Source of the DNA: a virus
Lineage: Duplodnaviria > Heunggongvirae > Uroviricota > Caudoviricetes
Strand: one strand, 5' to 3'
DNA length: 12,197 bases
IMG/VR virus record: IMGVR_UViG_2778261689_000011
Coordinates: 1-12,197 of that record
Part shown: piece by piece, positions 1 through 12,197 of the stretch
Layout: every line of letters begins with the position of its first letter
Position numbering within the stretch: position 1 is the stretch's first letter
Program-made: the position numbers and the translations under genes
Notes under the pieces: model-generated
Seen by the model: the letters and a program-made list of their open reading frames with translations, nothing else
Databases searched by the model: none
Told to the model about the DNA's origin: nothing

Positions 1-3000
1 GTTACCAGCAGCGTTAACGGTGATGGTGTGTCCATGTGAACCAATCGCAACGGAGTGCGTATGAGCACCAATACCGACAGTATGCGCGTGTGCACCTGCG
101 CTTGCAGCAGTGCCGGACAGTGAGTGGGTATGTGCGCCAGCAGATGATGTTGCATAGTTTTGATTATGCACAACAGACAATCTTGTTGATGCACTACCAG
201 CACCGGAGTTAGCACTAGCCGTGTTCACGTTGGCTAGTGAGTGTGTGTGTGCTCCAGCCGAGTTTGTAGAGCCGCTCACACTGTGTGTATGTGCCCCGGT
301 GTTATTCGTGGATTTAGTGCCGTAATCAAACGACGATGTGGTTTTCGTCCCCAAATCTGTACTGGATGCGCTGGCGCTGTGGGTATGCGATTTAATGCCG
401 TCCTGTTCCTGAGACAATACGGCCCGACCACTGGCAGGTTTGCCCTTAATCGTCCAGCCACGCATATCAGGGATCACGCCTGACGGATAAGCGGCTGCAA
501 GTTTCGGGTAAGCAGATTTGTCAAAAGCCTGCCCCTGCATCAGGGCATAACCAGACGGAACGGTATCTGATGGCCACGGGATTGGTGCGCCGACTGGGTA
601 GCTTTCTGGTGGAAGATTTTTCGAGGTATAAACTTCTGCCCAGTCTTCCTCAAAACCATAACCGTCTCTTGAAGAACGGTAGAACAGACCACCATTTCTG
701 TAATGCGCCTTCATCTGCAGGGTCCGGCAACTTCCGACTCCGGTATAGAAGTTAACCAGAATATAGCTGTCGCCAGAGCGGGTGACATTGTAAGCGCCTG
801 ATTCGGCATTCCATGGAACGCCACCATCCGCATCGGCATATGTATCCGTTGCCCTTCTGGCAAAAGCAGCCACATGCGCGGCGGTTAAAGTAATATCTTT
901 GGAACCATCAAACTCAACACCAGAAACCCGTCTTGGCGTTTGCAGCTTTGTTGCTGTTAATGCATTACCGTTCAGACTTGCGGACAGTTTGGTTCCAATA
1001 ACCAGTTCGCCGGTTGCGTTATCAATAGCAAACGGTCTTAATGTATTCCAGCCACCATAAACATCACCTTGATTGGTAAGCAGCAGGTAAGTTTTAGCGC
1101 CATCATTACGCCATAATGCACCATACTCCCCACCTATCATTCGAATCTGATTACCACCACGCGCTACAATTTCGTCTGTGGCAAAAAGTTTTTTGCACGA
1201 CAAGTTATCGTTAACGATTAACGAATGAGACTCATAAAAACCACGCCCACTCTTAAAATCAAGGATAACGTCCGCCGCGATACATTCAGTCGCCGGATTT
1301 GTTGCCCCAAACTTATAGGTCGTATCATTAACAACGAGATCAGCACCAGGTGCGGATATTGACAGGCCATCTTCAATAAACGCAAAAACAGGGAAAGCAG
1401 CGCCATCAACATAGAACACAGAGCGCAAATCATCGCCCTTATTACTCATCATTATTGAGTGAATGGCTCGTTCATTGTTTTGATATTGCCAGAACATGCC
1501 ATAAGCATAACGCCCCCTGTCAGTCCAGCCACCAGGCATAACAAATCCGTTAAACTCGCAGTTATTCATCGGATCGCCTGCGGTTCGCGTTGCCGTGGTG
1601 ATAATGACTCTTGATGCCAGTTCGCTTACTGAGCCAGCAGAACGCATAACAACAACAGGGTAATATTTTCCAGATGTTGCACCTGCAGGAGCGTTAACCC
1701 GCACATAACGCATACCACGCTTATCAGCAAAGTCTGTTTTACTGACCGCGTTAATGTTGTTCAGGAAGCATCCCTTATCGGGTATATCAGCGCCGTTCTG
1801 GTCTTTCTGCAGACGTTTCTCTGCATTGTCATAGGCTGATTTTACTGCCTTTGGCGTTGCCGCCAGCGTTTCAGACGTACTGTTGGTCGCACTGCTGAGC
1901 TGTACTATCCCCTTTTTCGTCGTACTTGCATCCTCAAGCGCCACGGCGGATGCAATATCCTCTGCCCGTTTAGCTGCTGTCTCGGCGCGCGTTGCCGCGG
2001 ATTCCGCCGTACTTTTGCTCTGAGCTGCCGCCGTCGCACTGCCAGCAGCCTCTGTCGCCTTCGTGGATGCCGTCGTGGCGCTGCTCTTCGCTGCTGACGC
2101 TTGTCTGGTCGCCTCATCTTTTGAAGCAGACGCCGATGATGCCGATGACGCCGCCGAACTGGCTGACGATGCGGCAGCCGTTTTTGAGGATTCTGCGCTT
2201 GTTTCCGACGCTTTCGCGTTCGTTTCGGATGTCTTCGCTGCGGAAGCAGACCTCGCTGCTGCGCTGGCCTGTTCAGTGGCTTCGCCAGCCTTCGTTGTGG
2301 CTGTTGAAGCAGACGATGCGGCGCTTTCTGCCGATTTTCCGGCGGCGGTGGCACTGGCTGAGGCCTGCCCGGCACTTGTTGACGCTGCACTGGCAGACGA
2401 CGCAGCCGCTGTTTTTGAGCCTGCCGCAGCCGAGGCGCTCTGTCCCGCTGCCGTTTCAGAAGACCTGGCGTTCGTCTCGGACGTTTTTGCCGCCTTCGCG
2501 GAATTTCCTGCCGCCGTTGCCGAGGAAGCTGCACTACTGGCGCTTGATGATGCGTTCGTTTCTGATGATTTTGCCGCTTCTTTTGAGGCCGCCGCATCCC
2601 GGGCCGAGGTCGCAGCTTCTGATGCCTTCGTGGTCGCGGTGGATGCAGATGTGGCTGCTGATTGTTGTGACGCTGAAGCATTCGTTTCTGACGTTTTCGC
2701 CGCACCGGCACTGGTGGCCGCCGCGCTTTTTGAGGACTCTGCAGCGGCAGCACTTTTTGATGCTTCAGTGGCCTTTGTTGATGCCGTTCCTGCGCTGGAA
2801 GACGCTGACTGAGCCGACGACGCGGCCTGTCCGGCTGACGTGCTGGCTGCGCGTGCTGAGTCCGCAGCATCAGCCGCATGGGTTGCCGCCTCACGGGCTG
2901 ATGTGCTGGCATCACTGGCTGACTTCTTCGCGGCTGCCGTGTTCTGTGCCACCGCGGACGCGTTACGCGCCACCTCTTCCACCATCAGTTCAAAACGGCG

Positions 3001-3309
3001 CAGTGCCTCCGGACGGGCATCATCCTCCGTCATGGCACCGAGAAAATCATTCAGCGTACCGGGTTGAGAATCTTCATACACGGTAATGGTCCCGGCATGT
3101 GACGGCGGGAATCCTTCCACCAACAGAATAACGCTGTACTGACCGTACTCAACGTCCATGCTGTAACGCCCGGCTTCATCCGGATTTTCTGAGGCCAGCG
3201 TGTTCACCACCACCGTGGTGCTGTTACGTTTTGCTTTCAGCTGGATTGTGCAGTTCTGTACCGGTTTTCCTGTGCCGTCTTTCAGTACACCTGAAATCTT
3301 TACTGCCAT
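1..3309 (-). CDS. stf: Side tail fiber protein (lambda Stf / Rac StfR-like); ATG at 3307-3309; open in frame to position 1, so the C-terminus lies beyond the window (about 1103 codons present)
   Basis: Minus-strand translation from 3309 gives [20 protein letters not shown]..., matching the lambda Stf N-terminus as recalled. Spot translations at 2941-3000 ([20 protein letters not shown]), 1441-1500 ([20 protein letters not shown]) and 1-120 ([23 protein letters not shown]) are all in the same frame with no stop. Putative SD GGGGTG upstream. Absent from the ORF track only because no stop falls inside the window. Confidence 0.9.
22..385 (-). repeat. Seven HxH motifs (SHTHS, four GAHTHS, GAHAHT, GSHGHT) in the Stf C-terminal region
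   Basis: Direct translation of the minus strand over 1-390: ...KSHTHSAS...[24 protein letters not shown]...[44 protein letters not shown]. Visible on the plus strand as recurring gtgtg(t/c)gc units. Confidence 0.8.
1950..2975 (-). repeat. Ala/Ser/Thr-rich low-complexity repetitive tract (about 340 aa) inside Stf, with recurring KTSETNA / [10 protein letters not shown]-type units
   Basis: GC-rich GCN/TCN codon repetition; translation at 2101-2160 gives [20 protein letters not shown]. Several reading frames on both strands are open across this tract, producing the spurious ORFs 1905..2915(-), 1992..3086(+) and 2063..2812(+). Confidence 0.8.
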
Positions 3310-3319
3310 ATTCACCCCA

Positions 3320-3347
3320 CAAAAAAGCCCGCCTGAACCGGCGGGCT
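3320..3347 (-). terminator. Rho-independent terminator downstream of the lom remnant and directly upstream of stf
   Basis: 8-bp stem agcccgcc (3326-3333) / ggcgggct (3340-3347), loop tgaacc, followed on the minus strand by TTTTTT (complement of 3320-3325). Confidence 0.6.
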
Positions 3348-3373
3348 GTCATAACACTGTGTTACCTGGCTAA

Positions 3374-3563
3374 TCAGAACTTATAACCGACACCCACGAT
3401 GAAACCGTCAGTGCGCCAGTCGCCACTGCCGGAGCCTTCATAAGCAATATCAATGGCCACGGATTCGGTCGGGTTAAACTGCACGCCAGCTCCCCACGCC
3501 AGAGACGTGTTGCTGTGGCGACCGTCATCACTTCCGGTCAGCACGTCGTGCGTTTTCCCCTTG
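3374..3563 (-). pseudogene. lom: Lom/Ail/PagC-family outer membrane protein, C-terminal fragment of about 62 aa, interrupted by the IS5-family element
   Basis: Minus-strand translation ...KGKTHDVLTGSDDGRHSNTSLAWGAGVQFNPTESVAIDIAYEGSGSGDWRTDGFIVGVGYKF-stop, matching the Lom C-terminus as recalled. The ORF-track 153-aa ORF 3374..3835 continues into antisense IS sequence and is a hybrid artefact. Confidence 0.75.
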
Positions 3564-5538
<1,975 letters not shown>

Positions 5539-5550
5539 TTATTAAAACTC

Positions 5551-5583
5551 CTGACAACAAAAAACCCACCGCGAAGTGGGTTT
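5551..5583 (-). terminator. Rho-independent terminator between the ParB-like remnant region and the tape-measure fragment
   Basis: Stem aaacccac (5562-5569) / gtgggttt (5576-5583), loop cgcgaa, followed on the minus strand by TTTTTGTTGTT (complement of 5551-5561). Confidence 0.55.
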
Positions 5584-5703
5584 CAGGCGACATAATAGTA
5601 GATATAGCGATTACGAGGCCACGCAATGCTTTTCTCCAGGAGCATCATCGATTTAATTAAAGACACCATCACATCTCTGTAACAGAGTGTACGTAATTAA
5701 CAA

Positions 5704-5937
5704 CTACACACACTGCTCCTGAAAATACTGGTCATCCAGTGCAAAGATCACTGCTTCAAATTCATCGCGCTCAATCAATACCGGATGAGTGGCTAAATAT
5801 TCATTTATCTCTGTCAGAGATAAAGGCAAAGGCACCCCAGCCATTCCAGCATAACGTCGGGCACGGGATATTACCGAATAGGCGTACAACAACTCCTTAA
5901 GCACCGGGTCTATTTCTGGTTCCGGTATCGGTGGCAA
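5704..5937 (-). CDS. Hypothetical 77-aa ORF; possibly a third fragment of the decayed ParB-like gene rather than an independent gene
   Basis: ORF-track ORF; its first codon is TTG (complement of 5935-5937), and the first in-frame ATG is about 30 codons in. No recognisable motif. Confidence 0.25.
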   Translation of the reverse strand: MPPIPEPEIDPVLKELLYAYSVISRARRYAGMAGVPLPLSLTEINEYLATHPVLIERDEFEAVIFALDDQYFQEQCV

Positions 5938-6011
5938 CCTGAGTTTTTCTCGCTTCCATCTTGCCTTTTCCCCCCTTTCTCCCCCGAACTCCGATAACCA
6001 CCGCTGGGCAG

Positions 6012-6371
6012 CTATGGCTTTTTTATCGTATCCTGCTTCTGCTGCTCTTTACCCTGGGCGATGCTGGCTGCTTCTGCAAGGATCTGCCAGTACAACTCTG
6101 GATTCTGCTTAAGCAGCGCGATCCCTCGTTCTGCCGTATATTCCAGTGCAACCTCAACACCATTAACCAGTTCACCAACCCCTTTCCAGTCTTTCAGCAG
6201 ATAACGAGCGGCATTATCAATGAGTAAATCATCAACAGAATCCACCTCGGAAACCTTTGAAATATCAAACTCCTTCGTTCCGACGTGCAAACTGGCATCC
6301 ATTTTCTCAATGTGGCGACGGATTAATGCATTACGGGAGCGATACTGATCGTTATCGCTGCTTCTGCTCAT
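6012..6371 (-). pseudogene. YdaY-like ORF (119 aa); probable C-terminal portion of a frameshifted ParB-like nuclease-domain protein
   Basis: ATG at 6369-6371 overlaps the 3' end of the upstream ParB-domain ORF (6352..6615) by 20 nt in a different frame. Together with 5704..5937 the three ORFs tile about 900 bp. Confidence 0.55.
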
Positions 6372-6615
6372 CCGTCAGGCCAGACAGAACAATGACCGGA
6401 ACAGAATCCATTTTGAGCATTTCAGCCGCCATAACACGACCGTGACCCGCAATAATTTCGCCCTTTTCGTCAATCAGCACCGGATTAGTCCAGCCGAATT
6501 GCTTAATACTTTCTACCAGTTGTGCCACCTGCTCAGTACTGTGCGTCCTGGCGTTGTGCGCATACGGTGACAATTCTTGTAATGGGCGATAGACTATCTT
6601 TAATTTCTCGCTCAT
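6352..6615 (-). CDS. ParB-like nuclease N-terminal domain protein (87 aa, YnaK-like)
   Basis: Translation MSEKLKIVYRPLQELSPYAHNARTHSTEQVAQLVESIKQFGWTNPVLIDEKGEIIAGHGRVMAA... carries the ParB N-terminal signature (NPR-like box plus the G-x-x-R segment). ATG at 6613-6615. The ORF ends at the ParB TDEQKQR motif with no downstream half in frame. Confidence 0.7.
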   Translation of the reverse strand: MSEKLKIVYRPLQELSPYAHNARTHSTEQVAQLVESIKQFGWTNPVLIDEKGEIIAGHGRVMAAEMLKMDSVPVIVLSGLTDEQKQR

Positions 6616-6629
6616 ACAGCCTTGCTTTA

Positions 6630-6666
6630 TGAATAAAACGCACCCCAGCAGCCAGTGCTACTGGGG
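6630..6666 (-). terminator. Possible intrinsic terminator downstream of trkG
   Basis: Stem ccccag (6643-6648) / ctgggg (6661-6666) with a large 12-nt loop, followed on the minus strand by gcgTTTTATTc. Weaker than the other hairpins. Confidence 0.3.
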
Positions 6667-6752
6667 ACGGAGGTGTTGCTGGTAAAGTTAGGTATTGGAT
6701 CAATGAGTGAGTCAACATAATATTAAACTCACAATTATAAATCAGCCATATA

Positions 6753-8210
6753 TTAGGAGCGCCAAAAAAAACCTGAAAACAATATAATAACAGGATAAAT
6801 TTCAAGGCGACCAAGAATCATAGCTATGCACATTAAGCATTTTGCAATGTCATTAAGCACTCCGAATGACGATGCAGTAGCCCCAAAACCTAATCCCATA
6901 TTATTAATACATGCAGCCACTGTTGCAAATGATGTAAGAAAATCATATCCCATACCATTTAACACCAGTATAAAAAACACCGTGAAGAGAGTATAAAGAA
7001 AAAAGAAACTCCATACAGACCTCATTACACGATCTGTAACTATCTTCCCTCCTACATTTACACTCAACAACGCTCTGGGATGAGAAAGCTGATTTATCTC
7101 GTGTTTGCTTTGTTTGAAAAGTATAAGAAATCGAAGTGACTTAATTCCACCACAAGTTGAACCTATACATCCCCCAAAGAAACTTGACAACAGCAAAAAC
7201 ACTATCGTGTGCGTGGGCCAACTTGCATAATCCTGCGTAGCTAAACCATTATCAGTGAGCATGGAGCTGGCAAGAAAAAACGAATGAATAAAACTTCCAT
7301 GCAAGTCATACATACCTATATGCCAGACCTGGAAAGAGGTAACAATGATCACCCCTAAGGCTATTAACAGAAAGAAACGAAGTTCAATATCTCTGATTAA
7401 AGGTTTTATCGTTTTCCTGCTAATAACAATATACCAAAGAGTGAAGTTGAAAGCCGATAGCAGGGAAAAAGAACCAGCCACCAGCTCAACCAAATAGTTA
7501 TTAAAATATCCGATACTCTCGCTATGAGTTGAGAAACCACCAAGCGAAACTGTGGAAATCCCGTGACAAATAGCATCAAACAAAGGCATTCCTGCAAGTC
7601 TATAACAGACAATACAAGCAATACCTAATAAAGAATAAGTTATCCACAGTGTCCGTGACGTATCGGCCAGGCGGGGAGTGAGTTTGTCATCCTTAAATGG
7701 CCCCGGCATTTCTGACTGATAAAGCTTTGCACCACCAATACCCAATAATGGCAATACAGCAACCGCCAGAACAATAACTCCTAAACCACCTATAAAATTT
7801 AACTGTGACCGATAGTACAAATATGCCCGAGGTAATGAACTAACATCATCAATTACAGTTGCTCCTGTTGTTGTTATTCCAGAAACCCCTTCAAACAGAG
7901 CATCAATGAACGTTAAATTAAGTTCTGAGTCAATCCATAAAGGGAATGCACTAATAACAGAAAACAAAATCCAAAACATTACAATTATAATAAACCCATC
8001 ACGGGTACGTAATTGAATGCCAGATTTCTTAGTTGTATACCACGCTCCGCCACCAATGCAAAAAAATATAACGAAAGTTATAAAGAAAACAAACAGGCTT
8101 TTTTCTTTATAAAACAATGCTACAACCATTGGTGGCAACATTGAAAGACTATAGAGCCAAACCAGGAACCCACACATATGAGTAACAACTCTTACATGAG
8201 ATGTATTCAT
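6753..8210 (-). CDS. trkG: Trk-system potassium uptake protein TrkG (TrkH-family membrane transporter), a prophage moron
   Basis: Translation MNTSHVRVVTHMCGFLVWLYSLSMLPPMVVALFYKEK... is polytopic and hydrophobic, matching TrkG as recalled. The ORF-track start at 8228 is a TTG; the first ATG is at 8210. Markedly AT-rich compared with its neighbours. Confidence 0.9.
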   Translation of the reverse strand: MNTSHVRVVTHMCGFLVWLYSLSMLPPMVVALFYKEKSLFVFFITFVIFFCIGGGAWYTTKKSGIQLRTRDGFIIIVMFWILFSVISAFPLWIDSELNLTFIDALFEGVSGITTTGATVIDDVSSLPRAYLYYRSQLNFIGGLGVIVLAVAVLPLLGIGGAKLYQSEMPGPFKDDKLTPRLADTSRTLWITYSLLGIACIVCYRLAGMPLFDAICHGISTVSLGGFSTHSESIGYFNNYLVELVAGSFSLLSAFNFTLWYIVISRKTIKPLIRDIELRFFLLIALGVIIVTSFQVWHIGMYDLHGSFIHSFFLASSMLTDNGLATQDYASWPTHTIVFLLLSSFFGGCIGSTCGGIKSLRFLILFKQSKHEINQLSHPRALLSVNVGGKIVTDRVMRSVWSFFFLYTLFTVFFILVLNGMGYDFLTSFATVAACINNMGLGFGATASSFGVLNDIAKCLMCIAMILGRLEIYPVIILFSGFFWRS

Positions 8211-8347
8211 ATCTAAATATTCTTTCAATTATAACCACCTTGCTGCAATATTATGATTATACTGTATAAAATTTAACTCCTCTTAGATCTTACTTCACTG
8301 TTCCTTATGAAACAATCATCAAAATGAATCATATTGTAGTTAAGATT
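8211..8347 (-). promoter_or_regulatory. AT-rich intergenic region between Rz and trkG; probable autonomous trkG promoter region
   Basis: 137-bp AT-rich spacer; the minus strand contains TATAAT-like hexamers (cagTATAATcat and ggtTATAATtg) shortly upstream of the trkG ATG. No confident -35 element. Confidence 0.3.
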
Positions 8348-8812
8348 TTACTTTAAACACTGCTCGGTTATGTATTGCTGAGCACCTTCAAGTTGGGCCT
8401 GCATCATTACCAGTCGTTCCCGGAGGGTGAAATAATCCCGTTCAGCGGTGTCTGCCAGTCGGGGGGAGGCTGCATTATCCACGCCGGAGGCGGTGGTGGC
8501 TTCACGCACTGACTGACAGACTGCTTTGATGTGCAACCGACGACGACCAGCGGCAACATCATCACGCAGAGCATCATTTTCAGCTTTCGCATCAGCTAAC
8601 TCCTTCGTGTATTTTGCATCGAGCGCAGCAACATCACGCTGACGCATCTGCATCTCAGTAATTGCCGCGTTCGCCAGCTTCAGTTCTCTGGCATTTTTGT
8701 CGCGCTGTTCTTTGTAGGCGATGGCGTTATCACGGTAATGATTAACACCCCATGACAGGCAGACGACGATGCAGATAACCAGAGCGGAGATAATCGCGGT
8801 TACTCTGCTCAT
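8348..8812 (-). CDS. Rz: Rz i-spanin (inner-membrane spanin subunit)
   Basis: Translation [51 protein letters not shown]... is near-identical to lambda Rz as recalled. The ATG at 8810-8812 overlaps the R stop as ATGA. Confidence 0.9.
8407..8592 (-). CDS. Rz1: Rz1 o-spanin (outer-membrane lipoprotein), embedded in the +1 frame of Rz
   Basis: Translation [57 protein letters not shown]...: lipoprotein signal with lipobox Cys and a proline-rich mature part, lying entirely within Rz. Confidence 0.85.
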
Positions 8813-9285
8813 ACCTCAATCTCTCTGACCGTTCCGCCAGCTTCTTTGAATTTTGCAATCAGACTGTCAGCCTTATGCTCGAACTGACCATAACCAGCGC
8901 CCGGCAGTGAAGCCCATATATTGCTGCAACGGTCGATAGCCTGACGGATATCACCGCGATCAATCATCGGCAAAGAGCCACGCTCTTTAATCTGCTGCAG
9001 CGCTACAGCATCCTGACTTTCTGGAGAAAAATCTTTCAGGCCAAGTTGCTTGCGGTAGGCATCCCACCAGCGTGAAAGAAGCTGGTAACGTCCAGCGGCT
9101 GTTGATTTGAGTTTCGGATTTAGCGTGACAAGTTTGCGGGGGTGATCGGAGTAATCAGTGAACAGTTCGCCACCGACAATAACATCATAACCGTGATTTC
9201 TGGTTTTCTGCCGTCCGTTATCTGTTCCTTCTGACCATGCCACCATATCAAGGAAAGCTTTACGCTGGGAATTAAGTGTCTGCAT
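8809..9285 (-). CDS. R: Endolysin R (lambda-type lytic transglycosylase), 158 aa
   Basis: Translation [61 protein letters not shown]... is near-identical to lambda R as recalled. SD AAGGAG 6 nt upstream of the ATG at 9283-9285. Confidence 0.92.
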
Positions 9286-9288
9286 TAA

Positions 9289-9630
9289 TTACTCCTTATG
9301 GGCACCGAACTTGTTACCGATGACCCTCATTGCCGCACCACGAATAGCATCAACACCAATCAGCCCCACCCCACCACCAATGGCAACAGAAAGTGATTTA
9401 GGCCATCCGACATACTCAAGCGCGGATGCAAAGGTCAGCGTCAGAGCACCACAAAGCAGAATCTCAAGCGTTTTTCGTTTCCAGCCGCCGCCACCGCCAA
9501 AATAGGCAATGCGCAAACCAGCCATAATAATTGACATAACCACTGCACCCAGCGGCGTATCTCCACGCCACCAACTTTGTAAGAGTTCCAGTAAGTCAGG
9601 CCAGGAATGAGGGGCATTGTGCATTTTCAT
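9289..9630 (-). CDS. S: Class I holin with an N-terminal Met-Lys-Met dual-start motif (lambda S-like arrangement)
   Basis: ATG-AAA-ATG at 9630-9622 (minus strand) preceded by SD GGAGGTGA; an in-frame GTG lies 3 codons upstream (9639). Hydrophobic segments, a Gly-rich stretch and a charged C-terminus. Sits immediately upstream of R with a 3-nt gap. Confidence 0.8.
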   Translation of the reverse strand: MKMHNAPHSWPDLLELLQSWWRGDTPLGAVVMSIIMAGLRIAYFGGGGGWKRKTLEILLCGALTLTFASALEYVGWPKSLSVAIGGGVGLIGVDAIRGAAMRVIGNKFGAHKE

Positions 9631-9723
9631 AAGCCTCACCTCCGAGAGTTCGGATGGTGCTAAGTGTAAGATTCAGGCTCTCAGGCTTGCTAACAAGAAG
9701 TCGAGGATGTTTCCGGAGCCTAA

Positions 9724-9753
9724 CAACGAAAAAGCCCCGGGACATGCCGGGGT
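9724..9753 (-). terminator. Rho-independent terminator immediately upstream of the holin (downstream of the moron)
   Basis: Stem ccccgg (9735-9740) / ccgggg (9747-9752), loop gacatg, followed on the minus strand by cTTTTTcgttgtt. Confidence 0.6.
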
Positions 9754-9847
9754 CAGATGGAGTGCCAGATTAAGCTTCTGGCGGTATATACTCGTGTTTG
9801 ATATCGTTAAATCGCCAAAAGTAACAATTCAAACAAAGAGGATTTTT

Positions 9848-10009
9848 ATGTCTGAAAAAAACAAGCCACAAGATGAAAATAAACCTCAGCAACCCGTGGC
9901 ACCAAAACCAACTCCAACACAAAGTACTACAGACTTTGCTACACGTCGTGTTTTTGTTGGAGATTCTGCCGACTCAGTCATTGAACATATAAAAAAACAG
10001 CCGAGATAA
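9848..10009 (+). CDS. Hypothetical small protein (53 aa), hydrophilic and Lys/Pro/Gln-rich; convergent with the moron and overlapping its 3' end by 32 bp
   Basis: ATG at 9848 preceded by SD AAAGAGGA with a 5-nt spacer; TAA at 10007-10009. Translation MSEKNKPQDENKPQQPVAPKPTPTQSTTDFATRRVFVGDSADSVIEHIKKQPR. No family recognised; it could be non-coding or antisense. Confidence 0.3.
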   Translation: MSEKNKPQDENKPQQPVAPKPTPTQSTTDFATRRVFVGDSADSVIEHIKKQPR

Positions 10010-10547
10010 ACATCGCCGCTACCGGAGCAAGGATGGTATACATCCTTGCTTTATCGAGACTCGTGCGGATTTTCTCATTTTCCAACAGTAACTCTCTTGC
10101 TGTATCACTCAAGTCAACAAGGCGATACCTTCGTATAAGCGGCAATAACTTATCAGGTCCTAAATATCCTGCATCAGCGAATATTTTAAAGCTCGAGGGC
10201 TCCATATCCTTATATTTTTCATGATATAGATGATCAGGAGGGGCATTGATCAGGCCCCTAACCTTCACAGATAAACCAGTACATACCAAGTAAATGGCGC
10301 ACCATGTCCATAGTAATGTAAATGTGGTAATTCCGGCGGTGAGAAAATCGAAATTAGTTTTCTGTGTCAGCAATAAAAAAGATGAACCAATTCCAACAAT
10401 CTGAATGTTCAGAAGTTTGTATCCATTCTCAACATTGGTTTTGTTAGAAAGATGAATCTCTCGTATCGTCTCTTCCCCTTGTTTTTCAAGATAATCGACG
10501 AGCTCATCATCTACTCCTAAAAAATAATCTTTAGGTAGTTCTCTCAT
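9978..10547 (-). CDS. Uncharacterised membrane protein (189 aa) encoded by an AT-rich moron inserted between the Q antiterminator and the holin
   Basis: ATG at 10545-10547 with SD GGAGGT immediately upstream; 570-bp ORF in AT-rich DNA. Predicted hydrophobic helices at roughly aa 70-95 and 170-189. Terminators on both sides (10655-10685 and 9724-9753). No family recognised. Confidence 0.6.
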   Translation of the reverse strand: MRELPKDYFLGVDDELVDYLEKQGEETIREIHLSNKTNVENGYKLLNIQIVGIGSSFLLLTQKTNFDFLTAGITTFTLLWTWCAIYLVCTGLSVKVRGLINAPPDHLYHEKYKDMEPSSFKIFADAGYLGPDKLLPLIRRYRLVDLSDTARELLLENEKIRTSLDKARMYTILAPVAAMFISAVFLYVQ

Positions 10548-10654
10548 CTCACCTCCACATCCTGTACTGAAAACAATTTTACCAGAATGTCTCGATTCTA
10601 GGTATTCCGCCAGGAATCGCGCTCCAGAAATGAAACATCAGGTTCGCCAGTACC

Positions 10655-10685
10655 AGAAACAACAAAACCCGCTCAATGGCGGGTT
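10655..10685 (-). terminator. Rho-independent terminator about 85 bp downstream of the Q gene (tR'-like position)
   Basis: 7-bp stem aacccgc (10666-10672) / gcgggtt (10679-10685), loop tcaatg, followed on the minus strand by TTTTGTTGTTT. Confidence 0.6.
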
Positions 10686-10768
10686 CTGGTAAAGTTCATG
10701 CGCTTGGTTCGCCTCGCGATACAGCTTTGCGAAGCATACCGGAATTGAAGCAGTTTATGCGTAAAAAA
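10686..10768 (-). promoter_or_regulatory. Putative late promoter (pR'-like) and Q-utilisation region between the Q stop and the first terminator
   Basis: Position only: in lambdoid phages pR' and qut lie directly downstream of Q and upstream of tR'. Candidate minus-strand hexamers (TTGATT ... TTCAAT) are weak and not confidently assignable. Confidence 0.3.
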
Positions 10769-11311
10769 TCAAGCTATTTTTTGAGCAAATGATTCTCGCA
10801 TGGGAATATATAGGGCATACTCAGCAACAGCCAACCAATTAGCAATTCGCTTTTCGCATGTGCTAAAACACCACTCAGGATGTGCATCATTTAGCAATTC
10901 AGCCATTTTGCGCTTAGTCATCCCCCGTCCTTCATACCGTTGCCGGAGGACACTAATCAATCCAGGATGCTCTGCCAGCACCTCACTTATGACTCTATCA
11001 ATACATAACGCCTCTGCATCAGTACAATGCGCCAGCCAGGTCTTTTGCTTGCCATTGATCATCTCTCGCAAAAACGCTTCCAGCTCAGGTTTCTCTATTC
11101 CCGCTTTTTTCATCCTGCGCAGGGCTTCATTGACGGCTGTTTTCGTCAATTTTTTGGATGCCAGCAACTGGTTAAACATATTTCCCGTCTTACCGCCGCC
11201 AATATACGACCAGCGCCCCCACATGCGCAGTTTTCCCTGAATCCAGACACTTTCCAGCGTGGTGAGACGAAGGTGTTCCCCGCTTTTGCCTGTATTTGTT
11301 GGGTAAATCAT
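10769..11311 (-). CDS. Putative late-gene antitermination protein Q (non-lambda Q family), 180 aa
   Basis: ATG at 11309-11311 with SD AAGGAAGG, overlapping the upstream gene's stop as ATGA. Lies between the YbcO-like nin gene and the terminator/lysis cassette. N-terminal ...LRMWGRWSY... resembles the LE(K/R)WG-W motif of Q21/QuuD-type antiterminators. Family assignment from memory and position only. The ORF-track start at 11431 would overlap the upstream gene and is unlikely. Confidence 0.6.
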   Translation of the reverse strand: MIYPTNTGKSGEHLRLTTLESVWIQGKLRMWGRWSYIGGGKTGNMFNQLLASKKLTKTAVNEALRRMKKAGIEKPELEAFLREMINGKQKTWLAHCTDAEALCIDRVISEVLAEHPGLISVLRQRYEGRGMTKRKMAELLNDAHPEWCFSTCEKRIANWLAVAEYALYIPMRESFAQKIA

Positions 11312-11598
11312 AAATAACCTTCCTTTCTCCAGATTTCTTGTGTGCGAAAAACACCTTCTGCATGCATCAGGCGTAATTCTTCTTTGGTGTAATCGCTGGT
11401 TTTTACCCGCCCGTCGATTAAATCGTGGCATGAGCTACAGGCAATCGCTGCCTGCATATCGTGTGGTTTTGTCGCTGTTCCGCACGTCCCCGCCAGCCTG
11501 TAATGCGCCAGCACAGAGGTTTCGGGATTGTGATTGCAGTAGCCAGGGATTCTGATCTGGCACATCTGGCCTTTAGCCGCTTTACGTAAATTCACCAT
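11308..11598 (-). CDS. YbcO-like DUF1364 protein (putative zinc-binding nuclease of the lambdoid nin region), 96 aa
   Basis: Translation MVNLRKAAKGQMCQIRIPGYCNHNPETSVLAHYRLAGTCGTATKPHDMQAAIACSSCHDLIDGR... with the Cys pattern and CQ(I/V)RIPG motif recalled for YbcO. ATG at 11596-11598 overlaps the upstream stop as TAATG. Confidence 0.8.
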   Translation of the reverse strand: MVNLRKAAKGQMCQIRIPGYCNHNPETSVLAHYRLAGTCGTATKPHDMQAAIACSSCHDLIDGRVKTSDYTKEELRLMHAEGVFRTQEIWRKEGYL

Positions 11599-12197
11599 TA
11601 CGCAAACTCCAGTAGTTGTGCGGCCACATTTTCAACTTCCTCCTGAGAGGAGAATTTACGGAACAGAATCCAGTTCCACAGCACATTCAGAACAGATTTA
11701 TAAACCTGCTGAAACTCGGTTTCGTCCATATTCGCAAACGCGATGGATTTCGCCCTGCGCCCACGGCTACCTTCCGGATAAATATGCTCGGTGTAAAATC
11801 CGGCCTGAATGGTTACCCACTCGCGGAAAGCCTCAAACGACTTTAGCAATGCCGTATCCCGAGTTCTGCGTGTCGCAACTGTATTTAGATATTGCTCTGC
11901 GGCATCACTCAGGGCTGGTGTGTGTTCCCGACCAACTGATTCGCACAAGTAATCCACGAAACCAGACAGCAGTTCTCGTTCGCGAGGTGTGATCGCCCCA
12001 CCGACCGGAGTCCAGTAATCGAATCCCAGTTGCAGGAGTTTGAAAAAACGCTTGTGGAATGCGTAGTTACGCACACGCTTAAAGTCTGCGTGTATCCACT
12101 CACCTATTTTGATTTGATGCAGAAAATCGCAACTCTCCGGCGTCGCCGGGAGAAGTAAACCAGAAGAGGTTTGTTTGACCAGTTGTATATGCGCCAT
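11598..12197 (-). CDS. Lambdoid nin-region protein, possibly DUF1367 family; the start codon coincides with the window edge, so the 5' end may be truncated
   Basis: 199-codon ORF ending TAA at 11598-11600, tightly coupled to the downstream gene. ATG is the complement of 12195-12197 at the very end of the window. Family assignment is tentative, from gene order and recollection. Confidence 0.65.
   Translation of the reverse strand: MAHIQLVKQTSSGLLLPATPESCDFLHQIKIGEWIHADFKRVRNYAFHKRFFKLLQLGFDYWTPVGGAITPRERELLSGFVDYLCESVGREHTPALSDAAEQYLNTVATRRTRDTALLKSFEAFREWVTIQAGFYTEHIYPEGSRGRRAKSIAFANMDETEFQQVYKSVLNVLWNWILFRKFSSQEEVENVAAQLLEFA

Follow-up and report, generated by a model that had tools for sequence, protein, structure and literature searches.

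Comparative evidence that the small ORF is a protein-coding gene

A short open reading frame (ORF) that runs head-on into the gene of a membrane protein raises two questions, i.e., whether it is a gene at all and, if it is, whether it serves the gene that it meets. We asked both of the plus-strand ORF at positions 9848-10009 of the IMG/VR virus record IMGVR_UViG_2778261689_000011, of which positions 1 to 12,197 were analysed (hereafter the window, 12,197 nucleotides (nt) long). The window is a Rac-like lambdoid prophage of Escherichia coli with its late region on the minus strand, and the ORF converges there on the gene of a 189-amino-acid (aa) inner-membrane protein. Judging from homologous loci, the small ORF is a genuine protein-coding gene and a near-obligate partner of this convergent gene, whose product has three transmembrane (TM) segments. 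By the same comparison, the pair is a compact AT-rich mobile cassette that moves as a unit among Enterobacterales prophages and among positions within prophages. In its sequence features it is a moron, i.e., an accessory transcription unit that stands on its own within a phage operon (PMC3594210).

The first-pass annotation had described a 53-codon ORF with a Shine-Dalgarno (SD) sequence 5 nt from its ATG, an end lying 32 nt within the minus-strand gene, and a hydrophilic product rich in Pro, Lys and Gln. Re-derived coordinates agree with this description, as does the character of the peptide. The convergent pair was also correctly recognized, but its surroundings are not strictly unidirectional as had been stated: an insertion sequence (IS) transposase ORF occupies the plus strand at 3632-4642, the stretch from the Q-like gene to the lysis genes being otherwise all minus. 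Within the overlap, codons for the small protein's Lys-rich tail lie antisense to those for the Phe/Leu-rich end of the third TM segment of the membrane protein. With 79 ORFs of 40 aa or more in the window, the small ORF by itself carries no significance, and comparison with other loci was decisive. The ORF is already present in the NCBI annotation (Prokaryotic Genome Annotation Pipeline, PGAP) as the hypothetical protein WP_240763414.1.

A word-indexed protein search with the small ORF returned near-identical copies only, together with one from Leclercia (about 90% identity) and one from another Escherichia species (66%). Further loci were collected by means of the membrane protein, which is far better conserved. 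A convergent homologue of 46-58 aa, overlapping by 20-42 nt, was found at about 57 of 58 sequence-distinct loci with an intact 189-aa gene, a count that overstates the number of independent observations because the loci are phylogenetically related. These loci come from Escherichia, Klebsiella, Leclercia, Trabulsiella, Serratia, Yersinia, Morganella, Proteus, Pantoea, Citrobacter and Salmonella bongori. Of the first 17 loci examined, 15 had the homologue, as did, among species-representative genomes, all full-length loci (two each in Trabulsiella and Serratia, one in Yersinia), where ORFs of 47-52 aa end 20-32 nt inside the membrane gene; the Leclercia locus retains the small ORF beside a frameshifted 189-aa gene. 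Exact protein look-up added loci with the convergent ORF from Morganella, Pantoea, Proteus, Klebsiella, Citrobacter koseri, S. bongori and further E. coli types. In IMG/VR, 80 loci encode 40 distinct 189-aa proteins (50-100% identity), all 40 with a convergent family member and an overlap of 20-35 nt; beyond this set, the small ORF was present at three of three further loci. Even a metagenomic locus whose membrane protein is only 42% identical has the convergent ORF.

The pattern of substitution is that of a translated sequence. By the Nei-Gojobori method, applied outside the overlap, the ratio of nonsynonymous to synonymous substitution rates (dN/dS) is 0.05-0.25, in this frame only. The corresponding ratio of pooled proportions (pN/pS) is 0.26 in the small-ORF frame (pS 0.66, pN 0.17) versus about 1.5 in the remaining two sense frames. 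In the antisense frame with which the small ORF shares wobble positions, pN/pS is 0.33, as expected, and stop codons occur, and across the aligned loci no other frame is consistently open. Synonymous sites are saturated between genera, and the peptide motif is nonetheless kept. The ATG is retained in all aligned loci, the stop position is conserved, and a GGAG-like SD sequence with equal spacing is present in most of 13 further aligned loci. Length differences among intact copies arise from in-frame indels within a PT repeat, and four shorter or longer matches are frameshifted or truncated variants. The first-pass annotation had named interruption of the frame in homologues that keep the minus-strand gene as the outcome that would speak against it; the frame is instead under purifying selection down to 42% identity of the membrane protein, which supports the view that the small gene is real and linked in function to the moron. 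A longer, 71-aa version starting from GTG 9794, as in P0003-type annotations, was considered and rejected: upstream of the ATG, conservation is at the nucleotide level, but other genera have other frames or stops there. The coordinates of the features discussed here and below are collected in Table 1.

Table 1. Features of the small gene, the convergent membrane gene and their surroundings (window coordinates)
Feature	Position	Strand	Remarks
Small ORF	ATG 9848-9850, TAA 10007-10009	+	53 codons plus stop; peptide MSEKNKPQDENKPQQPVAPKPTPTQSTTDFATRRVFVGDSADSVIEHIKKQPR
Shine-Dalgarno sequence AAAGAGGA	9835-9842	+	5 nt (TTTTT) before small-ORF ATG
Membrane gene (189-aa inner-membrane protein)	9978-10547	-	
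3' overlap of the two coding sequences	9978-10009		32 nt
Portable element TCTGATATCGTTAAATCGCCAAAAGTAACC	9796-9825 (region 9796-9833)	+	about 35-40 nt upstream of the start codon
Predicted extended -10 TGATATCGT (TG-a-TATCGT)	9799-9807	+	small-gene promoter
Stem-loop	10024-10052	+	12 bp, 5-nt loop; 14 nt past the small-ORF stop
Predicted membrane-gene promoter, -10 TAAAAT	10581-10576 (span 10576-10585)	-	TGG precedes; about 30 nt before ATG
Rho-independent terminator CCCCGG-CATGTC-CCGGGG, then CTTTTTCGTT	9735-9752	-	late-strand/189-aa unit
Second hairpin GCCAGA-TTAAGCT-TCTGGC	9764-9782		between terminator and promoter element
tR'-like terminator	10663-10688	-	downstream of Q-like DUF1133 gene; other edge of AT-rich cassette
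DUF1133 Q-like antiterminator gene	10769-11311/11431	-	
Late-region order		-	DUF1367, YbcO/DUF1364, DUF1133 Q-like antiterminator, tR'-like terminator, 189-aa ORF, Rho-independent terminator, lambda-S-type holin, GH24 endolysin, Rz, then trkG

Two uncharacterized protein families

The small protein belongs to phrog_14506 (profile match, E = 2.4e-31), a family of stand-alone proteins of 46-58 aa whose function is unknown. Its alignment resolves into a disordered, low-complexity N-terminus rich in Pro, Gln and Lys, a DF(S/T)xxRxxVGDSA(D/E) block and a basic C-terminal tail. The earlier remark that the peptide has no recognisable motif is therefore accurate for databases, with no match in Pfam, NCBIfam or PADLOC, but not within the family, which has this conserved block of its own. 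A profile search of 1.84 billion representatives yielded 17 matches (cluster representatives), 15 of which are short (29-71 aa, mostly 46-52 aa), either stand-alone proteins or fragments. The other two are large proteins (1296 and 1649 aa) in which several short repeated Pro-rich stretches were matched, and we read these as low-complexity matches; no family member was seen as part of a larger protein among the 17, i.e., there was no domain fusion. Family searches of the small protein found no DNA-binding domain. A PDB profile match of VFVGDSAD to the GDS block of SGNH hydrolases (E = 0.15) was dismissed as a short-motif coincidence. The AlphaFold2 (AF2) model is mostly disordered, with two short helices and a predicted local distance difference test (pLDDT) score of 62.

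The membrane protein falls in phrog_11870 (profile match, E = 6e-108), also a family of unknown function, and is represented by 104 clusters across Enterobacterales, almost all of exactly 189 aa. Its AF2 model (pLDDT 82.7) has three long helices (residues 14-62, 68-92 and 134-188), the hydrophobic parts of which form the three TM segments and leave about 120 soluble residues. From the distribution of basic residues, which was read rather than computed, both soluble segments (residues 1-44 and 94-169) are probably cytoplasmic. The protein had no family match in Pfam, NCBIfam or PADLOC (2.0), no specific fold match in BFVD or the PDB, and no likeness to known membrane exclusion or defence proteins. 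Among 5426 complete E. coli genomes, the 189-aa gene occurs in 238, with full length in 224; the small-ORF region occurs in 269, at least 80% of the query being covered in 230.

The pair as a mobile cassette

The pair was found in three different prophage positions. Usually it adjoins the lysis cassette, where it lies behind four kinds of Q-type antiterminator (DUF1133-type, Phage_antitermQ-type, lambda-Q-type and others) and before several holin families. At one locus (L019) it is placed within the tail operon, upstream of the tape-measure gene, and at another (L221) in the early/immunity region beside YdaS/YdaT and HigB genes. In the window, G+C content falls from 0.48-0.52 in the flanks, on both the lysis and the Q side, to 0.37-0.41 across 9800-10700. 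L003, a prophage that shares the holin (WP_000781775.1) and the DUF1133 Q-like backbone, carries unrelated cargo at this site, and homology to the window stops near 9840. The features of a moron that we found are hence insertion between genes that are adjacent or differently loaded in related phages, and a base composition that differs from the flanks; of transcription signals of its own, the terminator was found and conserved -10 elements are predicted for both genes. The cargo of L003 (2589-3083) has a similar layout: a YmfI-like 92-aa ORF behind the conserved element described below, convergent with a 76-aa ORF and overlapping it by 15 nt, with an ORF6N/anti-repressor-like gene after this pair.

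A run of seven A residues inside the overlap (A7, 9991-9997) is a recurrent frameshift site. Single-nt indels in it, seen in several E. coli genomes (loci L020 and L220), alter both C-termini at once, the small protein growing to 80 aa and the membrane protein to 190 or 208 aa. The run could be a mutational hotspot or a switch. A phage record labelled 'Actinobacillus phage vB_Apl-pPE4' (PP818812.1) has about 110 nt that are 96% identical to the E. coli prophage region and, annotated with two hypothetical genes, a 53%-identical homologue of the 189-aa protein; this host is unexpected for a cassette of enterobacterial type.

Several observations concern the rest of the window. The IS ORF (DDE transposase) on the plus strand adjoins a tape-measure fragment (4510-5538, minus), and trkG (6753-8228, minus) directly follows the Rz gene in a very AT-rich stretch (G+C content about 0.33). 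The layout of these three is the Rac-type arrangement, which suggests a degraded prophage. In E. coli AR_0369 (L001), whose prophage otherwise matches the window, the region past the right end of the homology (8974-12367) has the annotated anti-phage genes iteS/iteA just upstream of the DUF1367 gene.

A portable element upstream of the small gene

The sequence that precedes the small gene is, in the alignment, almost invariant between genera and far more conserved than the coding sequence; its invariant part is TTAAATCGCCAAAAGTAAC. It contains a predicted extended -10 hexamer, and TGnTATnGT is invariant in 11 loci reached independently via the membrane protein. In S. bongori the extended -10 is kept as TGATATGGT, the only retained part of the element, and in the most divergent copy (L015) its place is taken by a canonical TTGTAT-17-TATTAT promoter. 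A generic promoter scan did not call the extended -10 because there is no -35. Transcription of the small gene would thus begin near 9814, with a 5' untranslated region (UTR) of about 34 nt.

IMG/VR has at least 119 contigs with the core of the element, TGRTATYGTTAAATCGCC; an SD sequence and ATG follow it within about 110 nt in about 100 of them, and 19 gave no ORF by the criteria used. Among the matches listed, the ORFs behind the element include the small-ORF family (about 60 contigs), YmfI-like and DUF2441 proteins, a zinc-ribbon protein followed by PD-T4-10-like genes, and others. The element therefore looks like a portable promoter and 5' UTR serving a slot, or hotspot, for accessory genes oriented against the late operon. 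In the PD-T4-10-like case, an IMG/VR locus (L032), a zinc-ribbon ORF of 67 aa stands behind the element and is followed by two genes that weakly match PD-T4-10 A/B (E = 1e-4 and 9e-8), which suggests that defence systems are among the cargo of the slot.

Between the terminator and the element lies a second hairpin, for which other genera have the compensatory variants GCCAGT/ACTGGC and GCCGC/GCGGC. We considered, but do not favour, the possibility that the element and two hairpins form the 3' part of a late-strand small RNA, given that the element keeps a fixed distance to many plus-strand cargo starts and that the variable cargo side has no conserved promoter. Rfam had no family on either strand of 9400-10900.

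An RNA hairpin within the coding sequence of the opposite strand

Downstream of the small gene, 13-25 nt past its stop across loci, lies a stem-loop made of the codons for L-D-K-A-R-M-Y-T-I-L-A-P among the last 25 codons of the membrane gene. When its stability was compared with that of synonymous recodings in 38 unique variants, the median z was -3.4, with values below -2 in 34. In 37 of the 38 the small-gene strand forms the more stable hairpin (median difference -5.5 kcal/mol), and in 37 one stem position is a G.U pair where the opposite strand would have an A.C mismatch. Compensatory changes occur at stem pairs 6/30, 8/28 and 9/27 (A-U versus G-C, or C-G versus U-A). In a Salmonella enterica locus without the small ORF (L017), the peptide motif is retained and the hairpin is gone. 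This strand bias, together with its loss alongside the small ORF, indicates that the hairpin belongs to the RNA of the small gene, where it could act as a terminator-like 3' end, as a 3'-end stabiliser or in antisense recognition as a nucleation site for pairing.

The membrane gene has signals of its own. Upstream of it, GACATTCAGGTAAAAT is conserved in nine loci, the tail-operon copy L019 among them; L017 lacks it. Terminator hairpins homologous to the Rho-independent one of the window, with a long U tract, are present in most loci, and the position of this terminator places the entire small gene within a predicted 3' UTR of about 240 nt on the membrane-gene transcript. An inverted repeat flanking the cassette, CTGGCGGTATA/TATTCCGCCAG, is only 11 nt long and likely due to chance. 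From these signals, each gene appears to have its own promoter, and the two transcripts probably end near the hairpin and the terminator, respectively.

A working model of the pair

The reading that we favour, although tentatively and at somewhat less than even confidence, is that the small gene is a negative controller or antidote of a membrane effector acting at two levels, the pair being a self-contained moron in which the mRNA of the small gene doubles as a cis-antisense RNA. Under this model, transcription of the small gene would proceed from near 9814 to the stem-loop or just past it, and the transcript of the membrane gene would run through to its terminator, so that the small mRNA, about 240 nt long, would be complementary over its whole length to the membrane-gene mRNA (3' end and 3' UTR). 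At the RNA level, convergent transcription and hairpin-nucleated pairing would lead to interference and to duplex cleavage of the membrane-gene mRNA before its stop codon. At the protein level, the 53-aa product, which is disordered and probably short-lived, would bind to the 189-aa protein at its helical part in the cytoplasm. The effector would thereby be kept in check in the lysogen and released when expression of the small gene collapses or late-strand read-through is strong, e.g., on infection by another phage or on induction, with membrane-level exclusion or abortive infection as the outcome. Antisense coupling of the small gene to the moron, which the first-pass annotation had raised, is plausible and gains indirect support from the strand-specific hairpin within the opposite coding sequence and from the position of the small gene inside the predicted 3' UTR. 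A role in defence is suggested by the hallmarks of a moron and by the PD-T4-10-like cargo behind the same element.

Several findings weigh against this model. At 189 aa, the membrane protein is far above the size of known type I toxins, and PADLOC has no match for either protein. The membrane gene is intact in 224 of the 238 E. coli genomes that carry it; the frequent inactivation often seen with toxic genes, which we considered as a sign of toxicity, was not found in this species. Most copies of the hairpin are without a clear U tract, so that it may not be a terminator. In L017 (4001-4579), a full-length membrane gene of 192 aa with a replaced C-terminus stands without small ORF, hairpin or TAAAAT promoter and is followed by an unrelated co-directional ORF. 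The small gene is thus not universally required, which argues against an indispensable antitoxin; a regulatory or antitoxin-like protein was among the possible roles put forward in the first-pass annotation. To these is added the relatedness of the loci that were counted.

Alternative explanations

Two of these observations, i.e., the Salmonella locus without the small ORF and the finding that E. coli seldom has an inactivated membrane gene, make a cooperative relationship a serious rival, which we judge possible but on balance unlikely. The small protein would then be a positive partner (an adaptor, sensor or assembly factor) of a two-component exclusion or lysis-modulating machine, and the overlap and hairpin would only terminate or stabilise the small mRNA and hold the genes genetically inseparable. 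Near-universal co-occurrence, purifying selection on both genes and the usual site beside the lysis cassette fit such a relationship, as does a Salmonella lineage that retains the membrane gene but not the small ORF, and rare inactivation is easier to explain if the membrane gene alone is non-toxic. However, convergent overlapping transcription is costly for genes that need to be co-expressed, the strand specificity of the hairpin and its site in the opposite coding sequence suggest cross-talk at the RNA level, and the pair is also found far from lysis genes.

The remaining explanations dispense with the protein, the partnership or the gene. That the antisense RNA alone is functional, as in a type I antitoxin or OOP-like RNA, and that the open frame is a by-product of constraint on the RNA or the 3' UTR, is improbable. 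Complementarity of the whole small gene to the 3' region of its neighbour, a conserved hairpin typical of antisense RNAs and the similarly low pN/pS of the wobble-sharing antisense frame are what it would predict, but substitutions cluster at third positions of the small-ORF frame, indels are multiples of three, the start, SD sequence and stop are conserved as described above, and the antisense frames contain stops; constraint on an RNA would not keep a frame of 47-58 codons open at membrane-protein identities of 42-100%. Even less credit is due to the idea that the small gene is real and independent of its neighbour, merely the first cargo of a conserved promoter facing the late operon, with an accidental overlap. 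It draws on the occurrence of one promoter element before many unrelated cargo ORFs in the viral contigs, yet the pair and its overlap persist where the element is absent or different (the L019 tail operon, L015 and the L221 early region), every small-family copy with DNA context examined adjoins the 189-aa gene, profile searches showed no family member within a larger protein, and the hairpin is made of the neighbour's codons. As for a functionless chance ORF or over-annotation, short ORFs are plentiful in the window and the product has no database family of known function, but conservation of the frame across genera with dN/dS well below 1 leaves this explanation with next to no probability.

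Comparison with known systems

If the small gene is the two-level controller proposed above, the system would work most like a 3'-overlapping type I toxin-antitoxin (TA) pair or the OOP-cII pair of phage lambda. OOP is a 77-nt non-coding convergent RNA that overlaps the 3' end of cII, whose expression it lowers through antisense pairing and cleavage by RNase III. Shared with it are the lambdoid phage and a short convergent transcript, predicted here, over the 3' end of a coding gene; OOP differs in being non-coding, in belonging to the early region and in involving no membrane protein, and it has no sequence similarity to the small gene. RexA/RexB of lambda is a two-component system expressed from the prophage and made up of a polytopic effector in the membrane and a partner in the cytoplasm. 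Its genes, however, are co-directional and lie in the immunity operon, RexA has 279 aa, and no homology to the present pair was detected. In the dual-function RNAs SgrS/SgrT, SR1/SR1P and RNAIII/delta-haemolysin, coding is combined with base pairing that acts in trans on unlinked targets. One short transcript that would both encode and pair is the common feature (see also PMC7430163), both activities being predicted here, whereas the pairing partner in the present case would be the convergent neighbour. A functional small protein, as such RNAs encode, is indicated for the small gene on evolutionary evidence, i.e., purifying selection across genera.

The 3'-overlapping type I TA pairs of Bacillus subtilis prophages (txpA/RatA, bsrG/SR4 and yonT/SR6; PMC5848175, PMC3531482) likewise are prophage-borne and combine a membrane-protein gene with a short convergent partner that overlaps it at the 3' ends. 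A stable 3' stem-loop on the antisense partner and the expected duplex-dependent decay of the membrane-protein mRNA would also be shared. Their toxins are peptides of less than 60 aa, in contrast to a protein of 189 aa with three TM helices, and their antitoxins are untranslated RNAs, whereas the putative antisense transcript here encodes a protein under strong purifying selection; furthermore, they are Gram-positive systems, while the present pair resides in a Gram-negative host, with transcript ends predicted from the hairpin and terminator. The pair is accordingly not a type I system as defined by a small hydrophobic toxin peptide and a non-coding antitoxin. Nor does it have the type II layout, a co-directional, usually overlapping bicistronic operon with a DNA-binding antitoxin, as its genes are convergent and the small protein is predicted to be mostly disordered.

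With the moron exclusion proteins HK97 gp15 and P22 SieA (PMC3594210, PMC10883804), the cassette has in common an AT-rich insertion in a late operon, an inner-membrane protein and its own promoter and terminator, which are predicted here. The copy of L019 upstream of the tape-measure gene occupies the general slot of HK97 gene 15, the archetypal moron (PMC3594210). Both gp15 and SieA, however, are encoded by single genes without a convergent small partner and have no sequence or fold similarity to the 189-aa protein.

Significance

In a literature search, no paper mentioned the accessions, PHROG identifiers or peptide strings. The existence of the small ORF is already on record in annotation; the conserved convergent pairing, the hairpin within the coding sequence of the opposite strand and the portable promoter appear to be undescribed. 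A stronger claim, which we regard as rather unlikely, is that the pair is the founding member of a hybrid toxin-antidote/abortive-infection module in Gram-negative prophages, in which the mRNA of a labile antidote of about 50 aa is the cis-antisense RNA, the recognition hairpin lies in the coding sequence of a three-TM effector, and the promoter is the plug-in element of a defence hotspot that faces the late operon next to the lysis genes.

Whatever its function, the small ORF merits annotation as a gene, and precise predicted transcript boundaries are now provided. In lambdoid prophages, a hotspot for cargo is marked by the portable promoter element, which could serve as a handle in searches for further accessory and defence genes. 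If the two-level model is true, the pair would be a clean case of RNA structure selected within the protein-coding sequence of the opposite strand, and control at the levels of protein and antisense RNA would be coupled and enforced by the 3' coding overlap. The membrane protein would then represent a new family of effectors among the exclusion and defence functions borne by prophages. Thus, a widespread but unnamed prophage cassette, carried by about 4% of complete E. coli genomes and by many enteric genera, would gain the status of a defined two-gene system whose control logic is unusual.

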